Notes under the pieces: model-generated
Told to the model about the DNA's origin: nothing
Databases searched by the model: none
The model's input: the letters and a program-made list of their open reading frames with translations, nothing else
Shown: positions 41,431 to 62,062 of the stretch, piece after piece
How positions within the stretch are numbered: position 1 is the stretch's first letter
Layout: each line of letters begins with the position of its first letter
Translations under genes and position numbers: made by a program
Source: a virus
DNA length: 64,000 nucleotides
Virus record (IMG/VR): IMGVR_UViG_3300024313_000004
Coordinates: 1-64,000 of that record
Reading direction: 5' to 3' (one strand)

Positions 41431-42898
41431 TTATATACCTCCAAAGCCATTGAATATATCCATTACGACTGACAATCTCTCAGTTATTTCTGGCATTCCC
41501 AACGGTTCGATAATCTTATTTATCGGTGCCAAAATACACTTAGCGAATTGAATATCATAATTTATTTCAGGTGCAATCTCAATAGGATAAGAACCTCTGA
41601 TATATGCAAATATATCACCGTTATGTGTATCTTTACAATAATAATATTTTATCTTTGTTCCTGATTTTATAAACTCATATTTTGTTTGTAATAGTTTATT
41701 TTGATTTAATAAGTAATTATGATAAGCACTTGCCTTAACTGCAAAGTGTGCTCCATTTACAAACTTTAATGGTAATGATTTATCGTCAATTACTTTAGCA
41801 TCATAGTTCGAACAAGAAGATTGCATCGCGATATCGTCGATATCTGCTAACTCAAATTCTTTACGTAATGCTTTTATGAGTTTAAGTAAATCTTTGATGT
41901 TGAATGTATTTGAATTCTCAAATAAATATTTAACAATATTGATAATTTTCTCCCTAGCGAAAAGTGGTGTTGATGATCTAACAAGTTCCACTCCTTTTGG
42001 GTATAAGTATGATAATCTTTCATAAGGTATACCATCTTCAAAAGAAACATGTTGTATGTATTTCTTCTTAGCCAGAGATATAATAGATTCTGATATTCTT
42101 TCTAACTCAAAATCTTCTTTATTATCTACTCCAAATCCTGCAGCATAATCTTCTAAACACTGTTTGAAATATCCACCATATCTGTAATGGTCCATTCCGT
42201 GTATATAGTCTACTTCTCTTGACCAGTTCCATTTTACATCACAGGTAAGAGAACCACTTGAAACTAAGTTCATAAAATCTCTATCTTTTATGAATAAACC
42301 ATCTACAATTACCATTTCATAGTCCATTGTTAAAAGCTTTTCAAAGTCATTATAGTTTTCTGCACCACCAAGATAATTTGGATTATCAGTATTGATTTTT
42401 TTTGGTGATAAAACGATAAATTTCTTATCAATCTCACTTAATGATTTTGGATTTAGAAATAAATTCTCCCATTCTGAATGTTCTATTGCAGGTAGGAATG
42501 ATACAAATAAAGAATCGGTATCTGCATATATTGATACTGCTTCATTATTATTTATCTGTGTAACATTTCTAATACAAAGATTTTTATGGAATTCTTCATC
42601 TAAATGCCATTGATTATACCAATAATCTTCATTTACCATATCCATAGTTTTTGTTAAATCCCTTCCTTGTGCTGTAATTGTGCCTGCAACATGATTATTA
42701 TATAATATGAAGTAGGCTGTCGCGAATGCTCCGTAAGAGCCGTTCAGTACTAATTTTAGTCTTTTTGCCCCCAGTAAAAAATACCGGGGGCTAAACAAGA
42801 GCGAGCTGAAGTGCGTTGTAGTATTCCGCTTCCTTCTTTAGCTCGCTCGCTTGTTTTTTTAAAGACTCGATTTTTGATATTTTATCTTCTCGTGTCAT
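41431..42898 (-). CDS. polB: Family B DNA polymerase, C-terminal subunit (gp43B-like), interrupted by a 40-nt coding gap near the 5' end
   Basis: ATG 42898 gives MTREDKISKIESLKKQASELKKEAEYYNALQLAL[V*]; +1 frame gives KLVLNGSYG (motif B), YADTDS (motif C), KKKY, KGVE..RSSTP. Confidence 0.85.
42760..42800 (-). other. GC-rich RNA hairpin making up the coding gap in polB
   Basis: mRNA UCUUGUUUA-GCCCCCGGUA-UUUUU-UACUGGGGGC-AAAAAGA; 10-bp core with one G-U, extended by a 7-bp basal stem. Confidence 0.85.
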
Positions 42899-42978
42899 AT
42901 AATTTATATACTTTTTATTAAATAAGTTCTAAATGGAACTTATACTATTTGATATATATTTAAAATAGTATTATTTAT

Positions 42979-44082
42979 ATGGTAAAGGAGAAAGAAGTTT
43001 TAATTAAAATAAACATTAGAAATAGAGTTCATTTTGAAAGATTGGGGTATTCTATTGATGATGAGATATATGTTTCGGTTGTTGATTTGTTACCTGGTTC
43101 TAAATTTAAAGTCACTGCAATTTGTAAAATTTGTGAATCAGAAAATATACTACCATATAGTAAATATCTGGTAAATAAAAACAGAAATGGTAAAAATTAC
43201 TATTCTTGCTTTCGTTGTAAAACACATGTTAAGGAAAAAACTTGTATGGAAAGATATGGTGTAAAATCATATTCAATGACTAATGAATTTAGGGTATCAG
43301 AAAGTATAAAATGGAGAGGTATTAAAAAGGGTGGAGATAAAGGTGAAAAAACAATGTTGGAAAGGTATGGTGTAACATCATATTTTAAAACCGATAAGAG
43401 TAAAGAATATAATAGTAAATGGATGTCATCTGATGAGTTTAAAGAGAAGTCTAAGAGGACGATGTTGGAAAGATATGGAGTAGATCACTATTCAAAATCA
43501 AGTAAATTCAAAGAGTATATATCCTTAAATAAGGATCATATAGTTAATAAAATTAAAGAAACGTTTATTAATAAATATGGTGTGGATAACGCATTTAAAT
43601 TAGGAAGTTATAAAAAGAAAATGTTAGATTGTAGAGATAGTATTGAATGTAGTAAAAGGGAAACTTGTATGGAAAGGTATGGTGTGGATAATGTATCAAA
43701 AGTGGATATTATTAAAGAAAAGAGGAAAAAAACATTATTAGGTAATGGTCAAATTGTACCGGATGATAAAATAACCTCCTGGGAACTTTATAAAAAAAAT
43801 GTTAGAAATATGACTAAACGGAATAAAAAAATACTATATGAAGTATGGAACGGATTTGACTATTATGATAATGAATTTATTAAAGGTTATCTATCTCATA
43901 CACATACACACCGGTTTTATCCGACGATTGATCATAAAACTTCGGTATATTTTGGGTTTATAAATAAAATAGATCCAAATATAATTGGATCTATTGAAAA
44001 TTTATGCATAACCAAAAGGTTCATAAATTCAACTAAATCTAAAATGTGTGAAGAAGAGTTTTTAAAAATATTAAAGTCTTAA
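42979..44082 (+). mobile_element. Free-standing HNH homing-endonuclease-like gene with (E/K)RYGV repeats
   Basis: N-terminal CKIC/CFRC Zn motif, repeated ERYGV/KYGV units, C-terminal TIDH...NL...NSTK; opposite strand between polB and clamp. Confidence 0.7.
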
Positions 44083-44083
44083 A

Positions 44084-44872
44084 TCACTCATCTTCTTCTT
44101 CAAAGTCTTGTTCAAAGCTCAACATTAAATTTGAGTCTTCATGTTTTACTAACATAAAGTTATCAAATATATGAAATTTAACATCACCGGAATCATTTAC
44201 ACATGATAGAAATTTCTTATTAAGTATTAGATTAGAATTTCTTTCATCATCTATTTTATCTATCTCAAGTTCCCATGCCGATGTTTCTGATACAACAACT
44301 TTACCGGAACTTACACCAATTTGTAATATCTTATCACCATTTATATTAGATAGTTTTTTTATATCTGTGAAATCATCTTTACTTATATTGAATGACCATC
44401 TACTATTTTTAATATTAAGACCTTGGTTTAGTTTACTTAAACTCATGTCTTTTATTTCATAATGTTCACCACCAATCCAATTGACTTTTAGTTTACCACC
44501 AACGATTTGTAATGCTCTTGCATCCATTATATCTTCATCATCTTGTGATTCTTTATGTGTTATTTCAATAGTGACTTTCTCATTATCTTTTAAAAAATTT
44601 AAATTTTTAACAAATTTCTTTGCATTTAGGATAATAATATCTATACCATATTCTAAGTCTTCTTTTATTTCAAATAGATCGTTAGTTTTTATAATGTAAT
44701 TTTTAAATGCTAGAATTGTTGCTTTCCCTAGAATAGAATACATCATAATATTCTCACTATCTATCTTAATTTTAATATTATCAGATATCTTAGTAAGGTC
44801 TTCTAACTTAGATATAAACTCTGAAAATTTTTCTGATTTTATTCTAAATTTATCTTTTCCTGATTTTGCCAT
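44084..44872 (-). CDS. DNA polymerase sliding clamp (gp45/PCNA-like)
   Basis: 262 aa, alternating helix/beta pattern, FTDIKKLSNI, next to polB, shares upstream motif with primase and uvsW. Confidence 0.6.
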   Translation of the reverse strand: MAKSGKDKFRIKSEKFSEFISKLEDLTKISDNIKIKIDSENIMMYSILGKATILAFKNYIIKTNDLFEIKEDLEYGIDIIILNAKKFVKNLNFLKDNEKVTIEITHKESQDDEDIMDARALQIVGGKLKVNWIGGEHYEIKDMSLSKLNQGLNIKNSRWSFNISKDDFTDIKKLSNINGDKILQIGVSSGKVVVSETSAWELEIDKIDDERNSNLILNKKFLSCVNDSGDVKFHIFDNFMLVKHEDSNLMLSFEQDFEEEDE

Positions 44873-46480: not shown

Positions 46481-47551
46481 TTATACGTTATATTTAAAGT
46501 TATGATTCTCTTCTATATTAAGAAGTGTTTGATAAATCAACTTAATAACATTCTTAACATCTTCTTTATGTACGGTCTCCACCGTAGTATGCATGTAACG
46601 AAGTGGTAATGAAATCAATACAGAAGGAACTCCACCATTTGAATATGCGAATGCGTCTGTATCTGTTCCTGTGGATGTTGAACTGGCTGCTAACTGGAAA
46701 GGAATTTTATTTTTATCTGCAACATCCAGTACTAATTTTCTTAGTTTGTTATGAACAGCTGGTGCTCTTGTGATAACACCACCATTACCTGCAATAAATT
46801 CACCTTCTTTACTTGGAGTATAACAAGGTGATGATGTTTCATGACAAACATCTGTAATTATCGCTACATTTGGTTTAATTGTTTGTGTAATCATTTGTGC
46901 ACCTCTTAGTCCAATTTCTTCTTGAACAGAATTTACTATATAAAGTTTGAATGGTAATTCTTTACCTTTCTCTTTTAGCTTTCTGGCAACTTCTGCAATC
47001 ATGAATCCACCGATTCTATTATCTAGTGCTCTTCCTGTGTAGTAATCAGTTCCAAGTTTCATAAATTGATCTTTGAAAGTAATTACGGTACCAATATTGA
47101 TACCCATTTGTATAACTTCTTCCTTACTTGATGCACCAACATCAATAAAGATAGAATCTAAATCCGCTTCTTTCTTTCTATAAGAAATATGAATTGCTGG
47201 GTGTCCAAAGATACCATCTACTGGACCTTTATCACCCCAAAGTGTAACTCTCATAGATGGTGCGATTGTCGCATCTGATCCACCATTTCTAATTACTTTG
47301 ATATAACCTTTTGAGTCAATGTGGTTTACCATCCAACTGATTTCATCGCAATGTGCTTCAATTACTACTTTAAAGTCTGAGTCCATATTACCCATAACAC
47401 CATATGCGGTTCCATAGTTATCTAGTTCTACTTTATCAACATATTTAGAGATGTGATCCATCCACATTTTCTGACCACCCAATTCGTATTCGAATCCAGT
47501 TGGTGCATTACTATTTAGGTACTTTTCTAAAAATTTTTCGTCTATTTTCAT
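46481..47551 (-). CDS. M42-family metallo-aminopeptidase
   Basis: AHCDEI, ALDNRIG, VQEEIGLRGA, DVCH, GTDTD, YMHT. Confidence 0.92.
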   Translation of the reverse strand: MKIDEKFLEKYLNSNAPTGFEYELGGQKMWMDHISKYVDKVELDNYGTAYGVMGNMDSDFKVVIEAHCDEISWMVNHIDSKGYIKVIRNGGSDATIAPSMRVTLWGDKGPVDGIFGHPAIHISYRKKEADLDSIFIDVGASSKEEVIQMGINIGTVITFKDQFMKLGTDYYTGRALDNRIGGFMIAEVARKLKEKGKELPFKLYIVNSVQEEIGLRGAQMITQTIKPNVAIITDVCHETSSPCYTPSKEGEFIAGNGGVITRAPAVHNKLRKLVLDVADKNKIPFQLAASSTSTGTDTDAFAYSNGGVPSVLISLPLRYMHTTVETVHKEDVKNVIKLIYQTLLNIEENHNFKYNV

Positions 47552-59077: not shown

Positions 59078-62062
59078 ATGGCTCAGAATATAGGAACATT
59101 AGTAGGTTCTGCAATAAGACCGATAGATAGTACAATGCCAATTGCATCAGCATTTGCATTTGAAATAAATGGTGGACACCATCAGGTTGGTACTTTAGTT
59201 GATAGAAATAATATAATGGTTCAGAGAAGGCAATGGGGTATGTTATGTACGGTTTATAATGACTCTGTTAACAATGGAACATATCAACTTAAATATGGTT
59301 ATAGTAGTACAGATTCAATGGATAATAGTAATTGGGTTTTATTTGGTGGTGGATCTGTCGGATCTGGAGTTTCCAATTGGAATGATCCTGTTATATCAAT
59401 TTCCACGACACCACCTACATATCCAGTTGATGGTGATAGATACCTTGTTGGTAAAAGTTCGACGGCTTCTTTAAGTGGTATATTTTCTAGTTTAACTAAT
59501 ACAGGATATGTTGGGAATCTAGTTGGTGGATATATTGCTGAATATAAAGATGCACTTAGTGGTTGGGAAACAACTCTACCTACTAATGGGATGACTATAA
59601 GAGTTAATAATGATGATAATTCATTTTATAGATATGAGGGAACATATTCGACTGGTCAATGGTATAAGGAAAGAGTTAATCAAGTTAGATCATTATTTGC
59701 AACAAGTGTTAATAAAATAGATTATACGGTAAGTACTGGTGACTTCTTCACATATTCAACCGAAGTAGTTTATTTGGTACAATTTGCAACTGCTAATTCA
59801 GGTGGTACTGCGTCTATAAATATCAATAGTTTGGGTACTAAGAATATGAAAAAGCAAACATCTACTGGAATTGTTGATTTGGATGCAAATGATTTAAATA
59901 CTACAGGTTTTTATCAACTCATATATGATGGTACATATTTTCGAGTAAATATTATAGGTGGTTCTAATACCGGTTCATCGTCTTTGAAGTATAAAATTGT
60001 CGAGGATGAAAGGATTGTTGTGCCTGCAAACTCTGAATATCTTTTATATGGTGATCTTGAGGTTAATGGTGTTTTAGATATTAGTTCAACAGGAAAAGTT
60101 GTTATAATAAACGGTGCATTAAATGTTAATGGTGGTACTGTTTCTAATTCTGCGAATGTATCATTAATTACTTTACCTACTTCATTAACAAGTGGGACTT
60201 CGGGAACAAGTGGGACTTCGGGAACAAGTGGGACTTCGGGAACAAGTGGGACTTCGGGAACAAGTGGTATAGCAGGTGATAGATATTTAACATTTACAAA
60301 TTCAAATCTAACAATAACAGATGTATTTGATACGATTTTATCATTTACTATAGAAACCGGATTTGCATATTCTATAAATCAATCTATAATAGTCACTCTA
60401 TCGTTAGGAAATTATATGGAGGCTATAGTAACAAGTTATGACTCTGGAACAGGTGCAATGACCGCAAAGGTTATAAATGGATATGGTAGTGGGAGTGGTA
60501 CAGGACCTTGGATTATAAATCTTGATGGTGCATCTGGTGGAGATGGAACTTCAGGAATTGATGGAACAAGTGGAACCTCGGGAATTGACGGAACTTCTGG
60601 AACAAGTGGAACCTCAGGAATTGATGGAGCTTCTGGAACAAGTGGAACTTCAGGAATTGATGGGGCTTCTGGAACAAGTGGAACCTCAGGAATTGATGGA
60701 GCTTCCGGAACAAGTGGAACTTCAGGAATTGATGGAGCTTCCGGAACAAGTGGAACTTCAGGAATTGACGGAACTTCTGGAACAAGTGGAACTTCTGGAA
60801 CAAGTGGAACCTCAGGAATTGATGGAGCTTCTGGAACAAGTGGAACTTCAGGAATTGATGGAGCTTCCGGAACAAGTGGAACCTCAGGAATTGACGGAAC
60901 TTCTGGGACAAGTGGAACCTCAGGAATTGACGGAACTTCTGGGACAAGTGGAACCTCAGGAACTTCTGGAACAAGTGGAACCTCAGGAATTGACGGAACT
61001 TCTGGGACAAGTGGAACTTCTGGAACAAGTGGAACCTCAGGAATTGACGGAACTTCTGGAACAAGTGGAATAACTTGGAATGGTGGAACGGTATCTAACC
61101 CAGTCTTCTTCACAAACACGGTTAGTTTAAATGGGTCGGTTGTTGGTGATATAGAATACCTCACGGATTATTCATCAACTTATACAAACAGAAGTTTAGT
61201 TGATAAAGAATATGTTGATACAAATATTTTATTCGAAACTGGTGGTGGATTAAACTCAACACAAAGAAAGAGTTTTGGAAATGCATTAGGTGCAAAGTCG
61301 TTCGCGTTGGGTACTGGAAACACAGCATCTGGTGAAAACTCTTCTATTCTTGGAGGACAAAATAATATTGTTAGTGGATTAAATGGTATTATATTAGGTG
61401 GTCAAATAAATAATGTTACAAATCAAGAAGGGTCTATCATTGGTGGTAATAATAACTCAGTTACAGCAAATAGGTCATCTATTTTAGGTGGTCGTGAGAA
61501 TGAGATAACTCAATCTGATGGTGTTATAATTGGTGGTATATTTAATACTGTTAGTGGTGCTAATTCAGTTATTATTGGTGGAACTGGAAGTTTCGTCAAT
61601 GGTATCAACTCTGTAATCATTGGTGGTGTGGGACTTACAAATAGTGTAAATAATACGGTTATGGTTCCAGATTTAAATGTTCAAGGTGGGGCATATGTAA
61701 ATAATAATTTAGATGTTGATGGACAAATATCAGTAGGAACAAGTTATTCGAACGCATTCACATCCAACACATTTAACTTTGACTGTGACCAAGGGATGGT
61801 GCAACATGTAGATGCACAAGGTATGTCAGCGAATGGTACTATCACTTTTAGTAATCAAAAAGAAGGTAGTACATATACATTATTATTCGTACAAGGAAGT
61901 GGTACATATGATGTAGTTTTACCAAGTGGTTATTGGTTAAACGATACAGCACCATTTGACTTTTCAACTGAGTTAGTCGATGATGAGAGAGCAATAATTA
62001 CAGCAACCTATATATTTAATGCTTGGTACTTTGCTGTTAAAAAAGTAACTTATGTTGCATGA
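59078..62062 (+). CDS. Long tail fibre: DUF2793-like domain, collagen-like GTS repeats, beta-helix head
   Basis: [13 protein letters not shown]; (GTS/GID/GAS)n; [18 protein letters not shown]-type repeats. Confidence 0.75.
60188..60267 (+). repeat. Coding tandem repeat, 18 bp x 4.4
   Basis: acaagtgggacttcggga repeated perfectly four times (TSGTSG). Confidence 0.9.
60541..61070 (+). repeat. Coding tandem repeat of 9/27/36-bp units ([12 protein letters not shown])
   Basis: ggaacaagtggaac(c/t)tcaggaattga(t/c)gg(a/g)(g/a)cttc(t/c) units. Confidence 0.9.

Follow-up and report, generated by a model that had tools for sequence, protein, structure and literature searches.

A hairpin gap in a split DNA polymerase gene of huge phages is a probable site of programmed translational bypass

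The stretch of DNA described here, termed the window, comprises 64,000 nucleotides (nt), positions 1 to 64,000 of IMG/VR virus record IMGVR_UViG_3300024313_000004. Its minus strand carries a gene for the C-terminal part of a family B DNA polymerase (pol-C) of a huge marine phage, and the reading frame of this gene is interrupted after codon 34, at motif B, by 40 nt that fold into a stable hairpin. We consider it probable (about 0.7) that these 40 nt form a programmed translational bypass cassette, similar in kind to that of phage T4 gene 60 and not homologous to it, and that they are the immunity part of a homing cassette centred on an HNH endonuclease gene. A bypass had been proposed in an earlier sequence-only reading of the window, and each of its suggested checks that was run supports that interpretation.

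The polymerase of these phages is divided between two genes. The minus-strand ATG at 42898 had been taken as the start of the interrupted frame; it is a genuine start, but the framing needs correction, as it opens a separate C-terminal polB gene of a T4-like split polymerase, the N-terminal half of which is encoded elsewhere. In five near-complete relatives the N-terminal protein of approximately 510 amino acids (aa) and the C-terminal protein of approximately 480 aa are encoded more than 100 kilobases (kb) apart, and because relatives encode the two separately, ATG 42898 is the true start of pol-C. The gene is 1468 nt long (41431–42898). Searches of the 134.6-kb source record with PF03104, PF00136 and phrog_262 recovered the C-terminal gene alone; this record is estimated to be 23% complete and has a G+C content of 29.6%. 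The relatives are huge phages of 440–640 kb from marine or freshwater habitats and include GenBank 'uncultured phage' LR745206 and LR756502, while the closest polymerases of cultured phages belong to Chryseobacterium, Flavobacterium and Tenacibaculum phages. The parts of pol-C and of its interruption, all on the minus strand, are as follows.

42797..42898, minus strand: pol-C codons 1–34 (MTREDKISKIESLKKQASELKKEAEYYNALQLAL), ending at the proposed take-off codon CUU (42799–42797); uninterrupted relatives share the start methionine.
42757..42796, minus strand: the 40-nt coding gap, consisting of GUU (42796–42794), UAG (42793–42791), the hairpin, the A-rich CAAAAAGA and the proposed landing codon CUA (42759–42757).
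42767..42791, minus strand: the hairpin G-CCCCC-GGUA / UAC-U-GGGGG-C, with 10 base pairs (bp) including one G.U and a 5-nt UUUUU loop.
41431..42756, minus strand: pol-C codons 35–475 and the stop codon, encoding motif B (K-LVLNGSYG), motif C and the thumb.

Uninterrupted relatives (17 distinct sequences; M-TKEEK...YYNALQLALKLVLNGSYGAFAT) read straight from the shared start methionine into KLVLNGSYG, and one such homologue, L010, aligns through the junction with motif B of Sulfolobus PolB1 (1s5j). In the window, frame 0 reads ...YYNALQLAL-V-stop and K-LVLNGSYG sits in the +1 frame, within a downstream open reading frame (ORF; 41431–42798) whose conserved part opens with KLVLNGSYG. The downstream ORF matches PF00136 (family B DNA polymerase), covers positions 514–839 of 856 in the T4-type polymerase profile phrog_262 and is 60–86% identical to its relatives. 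The minus strand across the junction is TAC AAC GCA CTT CAG CTC GCT CTT / GTT TAG CCCCCGGTA TTTTT TACTGGGGG C AAAAAGA CTA / AAA TTA GTA CTG AAC GGC TCT TAC GGA, where the slashes enclose the gap. Every possible deletion was scored against the uninterrupted homologues, and removal of the 40 nt from 42796 to 42757, which restores motif B, gave the best fit, with ties at the protein level for cuts shifted by up to 4 nt; the gap coordinates, the hairpin and the CUU/CUA pair had thus been read exactly to the base.

The hairpin has a folding energy of −21.9 kcal/mol (z = −4.74), and none of 200 shuffled sequences is equally stable. The gap is U-rich at its 5′ flank and A-rich at its 3′ flank; take-off CUU forms weak basal pairs with the AAG that immediately precedes the landing codon, and this weak pairing draws take-off and landing together. 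The CCCC...GGGG hairpin occurs once, in the pol-C gap, in the whole 134.6-kb record. A search for CCCCC-N(8–22)-GGGGG in the five near-complete relatives found the pol-C gap alone in carrier G003 and zero matches in the non-carriers G002, G004 and G005. Being unique in its genome, the gap is neither a spreading hairpin repeat nor a terminator. An intrinsic terminator is also rejected on other grounds: beyond the hairpin stands CAAAAAGA in the sense strand, or CUAAACAA when the opposite strand is read, and the RNA contigs described below read through it. The fifth near-complete relative, G001, has an uninterrupted pol-C and four intergenic CCCCC...GGGGG hairpins in the order A-run, hairpin, T-run; these terminators share the stem base with the gap hairpins and are a possible evolutionary source of them.

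404009, 422940, 539788 and 554759 of G001:C1 (L091, L093, L094 and L096): intergenic, bidirectional terminators.

The possibility of an assembly artefact, raised by the sequence-only reading, is removed because DNA contigs and contigs from three RNA libraries carry the insert unchanged; the gap is real DNA. Nine seawater metatranscriptome runs contain most of the sequence words of pol-C, and contigs (Logan) were examined from three of these and from one DNA run. Each RNA run provides one contig of 1428–1474 nt, close to the length of the gene, and these contigs span 42400 to 42866–42900 with zero gaps and zero differing letters, 42757–42796 included. The RNA contigs end near the start codon and the DNA contig (21 kb) continues beyond it; gene-sized contigs without cover over the intergenic region and the endonuclease side favour genuine transcripts. 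No spliced joint across the gap is present in the contigs of the three metatranscriptomes. The predominant RNA therefore keeps the 40 nt, as a bypass had been expected to leave it, and the retention of these nucleotides in gene-sized contigs from three metatranscriptomes makes efficient RNA splicing unlikely.

The interruption belongs to a family. Among 78 related loci that were fetched there are 34 distinct interrupted sequences in addition to the 17 uninterrupted ones, and their gaps of 36–48 nt follow codon 33, 34, 37, 40, 41 or 42, within the ten most conserved codons. Gap lengths fall into all classes modulo 3 (class 0, 10 gaps; class 1, 14; class 2, 10), which contradicts the expectation that a length of 3n+1 would be conserved. 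All ten in-frame gaps hold an in-frame stop. A single frameshift is unable to join the frames in 23 of the 34 variants: either a stop within the gap closes the downstream frame, often a UGA directly ahead of the landing codon, or the gap is in frame and contains a stop. No in-frame start follows the closed gaps. The closest homologous gap, that of L073, shares its site and the GUUUAG with that of the window and has a similar stem, but its length is 41 nt. The length classes, in-frame stops, closed frames and the 41-nt gap of L073 together imply that the whole gap must be skipped.

Relatives differ in gap sequence, length and position while keeping the stem by compensatory changes, a pattern that had been proposed as a check. 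The common layout consists of a take-off codon, 5–7 nt, the hairpin, 5–17 A-rich nt, a triplet and the codon at which the conserved frame resumes; the distance from the 5′ junction to the stem is thus fixed, and that from the 3′ junction varies from 5 to 17 nt. All 34 gaps fold into hairpins of 9–19 bp with energies of −17.5 to −34.6 kcal/mol, the main stem opening 5–7 nt after the take-off codon in every variant, and the five base-proximal pairs are nearly always C-G. Distal stems differ and still pair (UCAAA/UUUGA, UCUGA/UCAGA, ACUAC/GUGGU, AAUAC/GUAUU, UGGUGA/UCAUCA and others), such that at least 12 different stem sequences keep pairing by double changes. The 19-bp stems of L021 and L038 take in the take-off codon itself. 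Hairpins of the family contain 41 G.U pairs and zero A.C pairs, and in 32 of 34 the more stable fold is that of the sense strand; the structure therefore acts, and is selected, in the messenger RNA (mRNA) strand.

An in-frame stop (TAA, TAG or TGA) lies no more than two codons from take-off in 28 of the 34 gaps, at all six sites. At five of the six sites the codons flanking the gap are synonymous and can be read by one transfer RNA (tRNA), the pairs being GCU with GCA or GCU; CUU, CUG or CUC with CUA; GUU with GUA or GUU; GGU with GGU; and UCU with UCA. The leucine identity of take-off and landing codons, which the sequence-only reading had pointed out, is kept throughout site 34: in each of the 17 distinct gaps there, take-off and landing remain CUN codons as the intervening sequence drifts, and uninterrupted relatives also write this leucine as UUA and UUG. 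The protein has one leucine here, so that one CUN codon is non-coding yet conserved; judged by these sequences, such a pair is what take-off and landing predict and a splice junction does not. Gap sequences have no conservation at the amino-acid level, and every feature that is conserved in the gap concerns the translating ribosome and none concerns the protein. Downstream, approximately 440 conserved codons remain open in every diverged carrier (34 of 34). Two otherwise identical gaps, of L054 and L056, are one G apart in the 3′ G-run (41 versus 42 nt); either this change of length is tolerated or the homopolymer was misread in sequencing.

Beside pol-C lies a divergently oriented gene that links the gap to a mobile element. 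It begins 80 nt from the pol-C start codon and approximately 180 nt from the gap.

42979..44082, plus strand: gene for a free-standing HNH homing endonuclease of 367 aa (PHROG homing endonuclease; DUF7487; D-H...N...N motif).

Sequence searches with the endonuclease gave DUF7487 alone in Pfam and no match in the Protein Data Bank (PDB) by sequence or profile, and Foldseek returned weak HNH rows only. The structural model has a mean predicted local distance difference test (pLDDT) score of 85.8, and its C-terminal domain (residues 263–367) resembles HNH nucleases by VIA-align: the HNH nicking endonuclease 4h9d aligns with Z 7.7 and a root-mean-square deviation of 4.5 over 88 aligned residues, and Cas9 and GVE2 HNH domains with Z 5.5–5.9. 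The predicted assignment as an HNH enzyme rests on these alignments and on the motif D318 H319 N341 N350, which is invariant. The database proteins nearest to it are of the DUF7487 and phrog_3339 types and come from huge, Vibrio and Lactococcus phages; the endonuclease matches listed include no T4-type MobA, and no direct comparison with MobA was made.

The endonuclease occurs only together with a gap. Of 35 distinct gap carriers, 23 have an HNH homologue immediately upstream of pol-C (full length in 17, partial or truncated in six), and none of the 17 uninterrupted relatives has one (Fisher 2.7e-6, uncorrected for relatedness); the four combinations, including the 12 carriers that have the gap without the endonuclease, number 23/12/0/17. 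Endonucleases 48–62% identical to that of the window pair with gaps at sites 33–37, and those 29–40% identical with sites 40–42. Nucleotide identity is mosaic. Codons 1–34 of pol-C are 94% identical to those of carrier L073 and 65% to those of L004, the otherwise closest non-carrier, while for the rest of pol-C the order of closeness is reversed (L004, 74–83%; L073, 62–72%). The mosaic and the tracking together indicate that the segment from endonuclease to gap moves with both, as homing with co-conversion expects, and the T4 MobA element behaves likewise (Bonocora 2011; bioRxiv 10.1101/2022.08.31.505936). The features of a homing-endonuclease cassette are all found here, namely a nuclease fold and motif, a presence/absence polymorphism and a co-inherited 5′ segment.

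On the bypass reading, a ribosome would translate 34 codons, at which point the entire nascent chain would still lie within the exit tunnel, and would stall with peptidyl-tRNA-Leu on CUU because of the hairpin, whose five basal G-C pairs stand 6 nt downstream. UAG, two codons further on, would serve as the stop for ribosomes failing to hop. The peptidyl-tRNA would unpair, the compact hairpin would be passed undecoded, and the tRNA would re-pair on CUA, which lies after the A-rich unstructured tract and would be held near take-off by the stem base. Decoding would restart at AAA, the catalytic lysine of motif B, to give ...NALQLAL-KLVLNGSYG. The product of the hop is predicted to contain the junction ...NALQLALKLVLNGSYG..., with the peptides ...EAEYYNALQLALK / LVLNGSYGAFATAYF.... 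Neither the window nor the record contains tRNA genes, and a tRNA-Leu reading both CUU and CUA is thus without a gene there. T4 mobA and gene 60 suggest by analogy that the endonuclease probably targets motif-B DNA, which is highly conserved, in phages without the enzyme; the gap would break this target in the phage's own genome, and endonuclease, 5′ gene segment and gap would spread jointly through homing. Of 33 distinct carrier leaders, 26 have serine 12 (IESLK; codon 12, 42863–42865), a residue that none of the 17 non-carrier leaders has, and carriers of the site-42 lineage that lack it (L021 and L038) are those with the longest stems of 19 bp. This serine may be an adaptation of the nascent peptide or may have hitch-hiked with the cassette.

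Several points weigh against a bypass of this kind. All ribosome steps and the endonuclease target are ones that we infer. The stop codon had been likened to that of T4; an in-frame stop is present, but it stands one codon beyond take-off, unlike in T4. In 24 of 34 variants, and likewise in the window, take-off and stop are separated by a common sense codon, GUU or UUU (about 3% of codons; 3.1% for GUU), and the stop follows take-off immediately in four of 34. The hairpin spacing of 5–7 nt is constant and the stop position is not. Stalling at a hungry codon was rejected for most variants, as UUU and GUU are common, and take-off from the GUU or UUU beside the stop was rejected since a matching landing would delete the motif-B lysine or does not exist. 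A slippery site (U UUU UUA) occurs in some relatives; it is absent from the window and lies only 2 nt from the hairpin, and was likewise set aside. Nine variants at site 42 have no matched landing codon, pairing UAU or UAC with AAC, GAC, AGC, UAA or CAA, and therefore tRNA re-pairing cannot be the whole story; in these variants a conserved GGA GCA follows the unmatched triplet. In most variants 5–9 nt separate the end of the G-run in the 3′ arm from the landing codon (8 nt in the window); the mini-Shine–Dalgarno element of the T4 system (GAG, GGG, GGA or AGG), which pairs with 16S ribosomal RNA, is placed 5–7 nt 5′ of the landing codon. Shine–Dalgarno sequences precede 3 of 100 ORFs of at least 150 aa in the whole record, versus 6% in the control, and because the genes of this genome lack them, a role of the G-run as a mini-Shine–Dalgarno element is doubtful; the leaders of these 100 ORFs are A-rich, like those of Bacteroidota-type translation initiation. 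Finally, the contigs show the predominant form of the RNA, such that a minority of spliced RNA could escape, and RNA libraries may hold DNA.

These departures from T4 allow a more far-reaching interpretation, which we put forward tentatively and hold to be doubtful in its entirety: that this is a second, independently evolved system of ribosome hopping with rules unlike those of T4. Here a hairpin with a base of five G-C pairs would bridge take-off and landing, and elongating 70S ribosomes of a host without Shine–Dalgarno initiation would need no adjacent stop in order to skip the gap nor, at site 42, codon–anticodon re-pairing, the frame being set by geometry or by the incoming A-site tRNA. 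The cassette would provide portable immunity to its own endonuclease at no fewer than six positions of an invariant enzyme motif.

Alternative explanations must account for the same family of gaps. Once transcribed, the mRNA might lose the gap, either through an endonuclease and a ligase or through self-cleavage, with the hairpin as guide, and translation would then be ordinary. Excision would remove the entire gap regardless of its length modulo 3, a structure-guided cut would need no matched landing codon in the site-42 variants, and contigs drop rare variants, so that a minority spliced form could exist. Against this stand the contigs of three RNA libraries, which keep the gap and hold no joints, and the variable 3′ distance from stem to junction (5–17 nt) opposed to the fixed 5′ one. 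Searching Rfam gives no ribozyme or intron match; a permissive threshold over 42500–43050 produced one sub-threshold match to L17DE (21 versus 37 bits), taken as chance. Excision would also leave the in-frame stops and the two conserved synonymous codons unexplained. We know of no case in phages or bacteria of 40-nt hairpins being spliced from mRNA. Excision and ligation, which the sequence-only reading had listed as an alternative, is not seen in the RNA contigs and we regard it as unlikely.

A somewhat less likely alternative is that the interruption is not rescued. A peptide of 35 residues (...LALV) would then be released and a C-terminal protein started internally (in the window from UUG 42798, through the hairpin), the two assembling non-covalently; or a +1 shift at CUU-GUU-UAG would add 13 residues, the product reading ...LALVSPRYFLLGAKRLK... 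and giving the rival peptide ...LALVSPRYFLLGAK. The +1 frame is open across the gap of the window, with a 455-aa ORF from TTG 42798, the polymerase is already made from separate N- and C-terminal genes, and a split intein is tolerated in relatives. However, the shift is formally possible by accident of this window alone: it is inapplicable to the 23 of 34 relatives whose downstream frame is closed or in frame with a stop and is followed by no in-frame start, and the nearest gap, that of L073, is longer by one base. The break would moreover strike the motif-B helix at six different places, and the amino-acid sequence of the gap is not conserved. On the sequences compared, frameshifting is excluded for the family. 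Least probable is that carriers are defective, the cassette having damaged pol-C, and that their genomes persist as parasites of intact relatives or by means of another polymerase. Insertions of selfish elements can do harm, and in a record that is 23% complete a second polymerase is conceivable. An inactivating insertion is nevertheless at odds with the approximately 440 conserved codons intact downstream in all 34 diverged variants, with near-complete carriers such as G003 (98% complete) that have no polymerase C-terminal gene besides the gap-bearing pol-C, with the gene-sized pol-C contigs in RNA libraries and with hairpin covariation, which reflects selection on the gap itself. What probability remains belongs to something not yet imagined.

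The translational bypass favoured here invites comparison with T4 gene 60, in which a 50-nt bypass is associated with the HNH homing endonuclease MobA (Huang 1988; Bonocora 2011; Manning and Atkins, bioRxiv 10.1101/2022.08.31.505936). In both systems an essential replication enzyme is encoded in split form, and a gap of tens of nucleotides interrupts the downstream gene after 34–46 codons; the gap is flanked by synonymous take-off and landing codons and opens with an in-frame stop. Both have a stable, covarying stem-loop on the take-off side (the basal pairs in the window include CUU) and an A/U-rich 3′ part. In both, an adjacent free-standing HNH endonuclease travels with the 5′ segment and the gap, and some variants have kept the gap and lost the endonuclease. 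The differences are equally clear. The host gene is polB at motif B and not topoisomerase II (large-subunit ORF2), and the phages are huge (440–640 kb) marine or freshwater phages without Shine–Dalgarno sequences. The hairpin has a CCCCC/GGGGG base, whereas that of T4 has a CC-UUCG-GG tip, and the stop usually comes one codon after take-off, whereas in T4 a stop or rare codon is immediate. There are six insertion positions versus one (plus or minus one codon), and one site lacks a matched landing codon. The split in polB is older than the endonuclease and was not caused by it, and the 34-residue leader is native polymerase sequence, not an extension borne by the element.

The mitochondria of Magnusiomyces capitatus have 81 'byps' per genome, which spread in the manner of GC-cluster mobile elements (Lang 2014; Nosek 2015; in the account relayed by bioRxiv 10.1101/2022.08.31.505936). 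As described there, they too are G+C-rich hairpin gaps (27–55 nt) at varied positions in essential genes of an A+T-rich genome, with no use of Shine–Dalgarno sequences and an A/U-rich 3′ part. The pol-C gap differs in occurring once per genome, within the same ten codons, in being tied to an endonuclease and in belonging to bacterial and not mitochondrial translation. Free-standing homing endonucleases also fragment phage genes, as in T4-type MobE in nrdA, Aeromonas phage Aeh1 43A/43B and the 'fractured genes' with split inteins (Dassa 2009, PMC2677866). The likeness lies in selfish nucleases beside or inside conserved replication genes and in a polymerase made in pieces; those systems restore function by protein assembly or splicing, and none has an untranslated hairpin gap within an ORF. 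In the full-text literature searched, bypass is described only for the T4 gene 60 family (all topoisomerase), Magnusiomyces mitochondria and a Streptomyces-phage candidate, and none is in a polymerase.

Further insertions are found in pol-C of relatives. In L050 (L050:1098–4077) the gene is broken again at motif C: one ORF ends in an intein N-part, a free-standing 371-aa gene follows, and the next ORF opens with an intein C-part (PF14890 halves). This is a 'fractured gene' with a split intein and adds to the resemblance to such genes. L053, L059 and L066 likewise have insertions of approximately 1.6 kb at pol-C codon ~115, and other insertions lie near codons 113–158 in L054–L056 (~390 nt) and L068 (~475 nt); no Rfam families were found in the seven relatives with larger pol-C insertions. 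Elsewhere in the window, a 262-aa gene without Pfam or PHROG match adjoins the endonuclease (44084–44872, minus strand) and is kept upstream of pol-C in most relatives, and 46481–47551 (minus strand) encodes a homologue of M42 glutamyl aminopeptidase (PF05343, E 6.5e-77). The G+C content rises locally to 0.385, versus approximately 0.29, in the region 59078–62062, where a 994-aa ORF lies and long overlapping ORFs occupy the two strands.

Efficient long-range bypass in bacteria and their viruses has so far consisted of one family, that of T4 gene 60, which its own students have called an isolated phenomenon (bioRxiv 10.1101/2022.08.31.505936). If the reading given here is true, the pol-C gaps form a natural mutational series of 34 variants at six positions, with three stop codons, stems of 9–19 bp and gaps of 36–48 nt. 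Such a series could separate the general needs of ribosome hopping from the idiosyncrasies of T4, among them an A-site stop, a matched landing codon, pairing with ribosomal RNA and the nascent peptide. It would also generalize the concept of a bypass gap as the immunity half of a homing-endonuclease cassette. For annotation, the consequence is that gene calls in huge phages currently report the polymerase gene as truncated or frameshifted at the gap. A family of bypass gaps not homologous to gene 60 would, if true, be of high interest to the study of both recoding and mobile elements.

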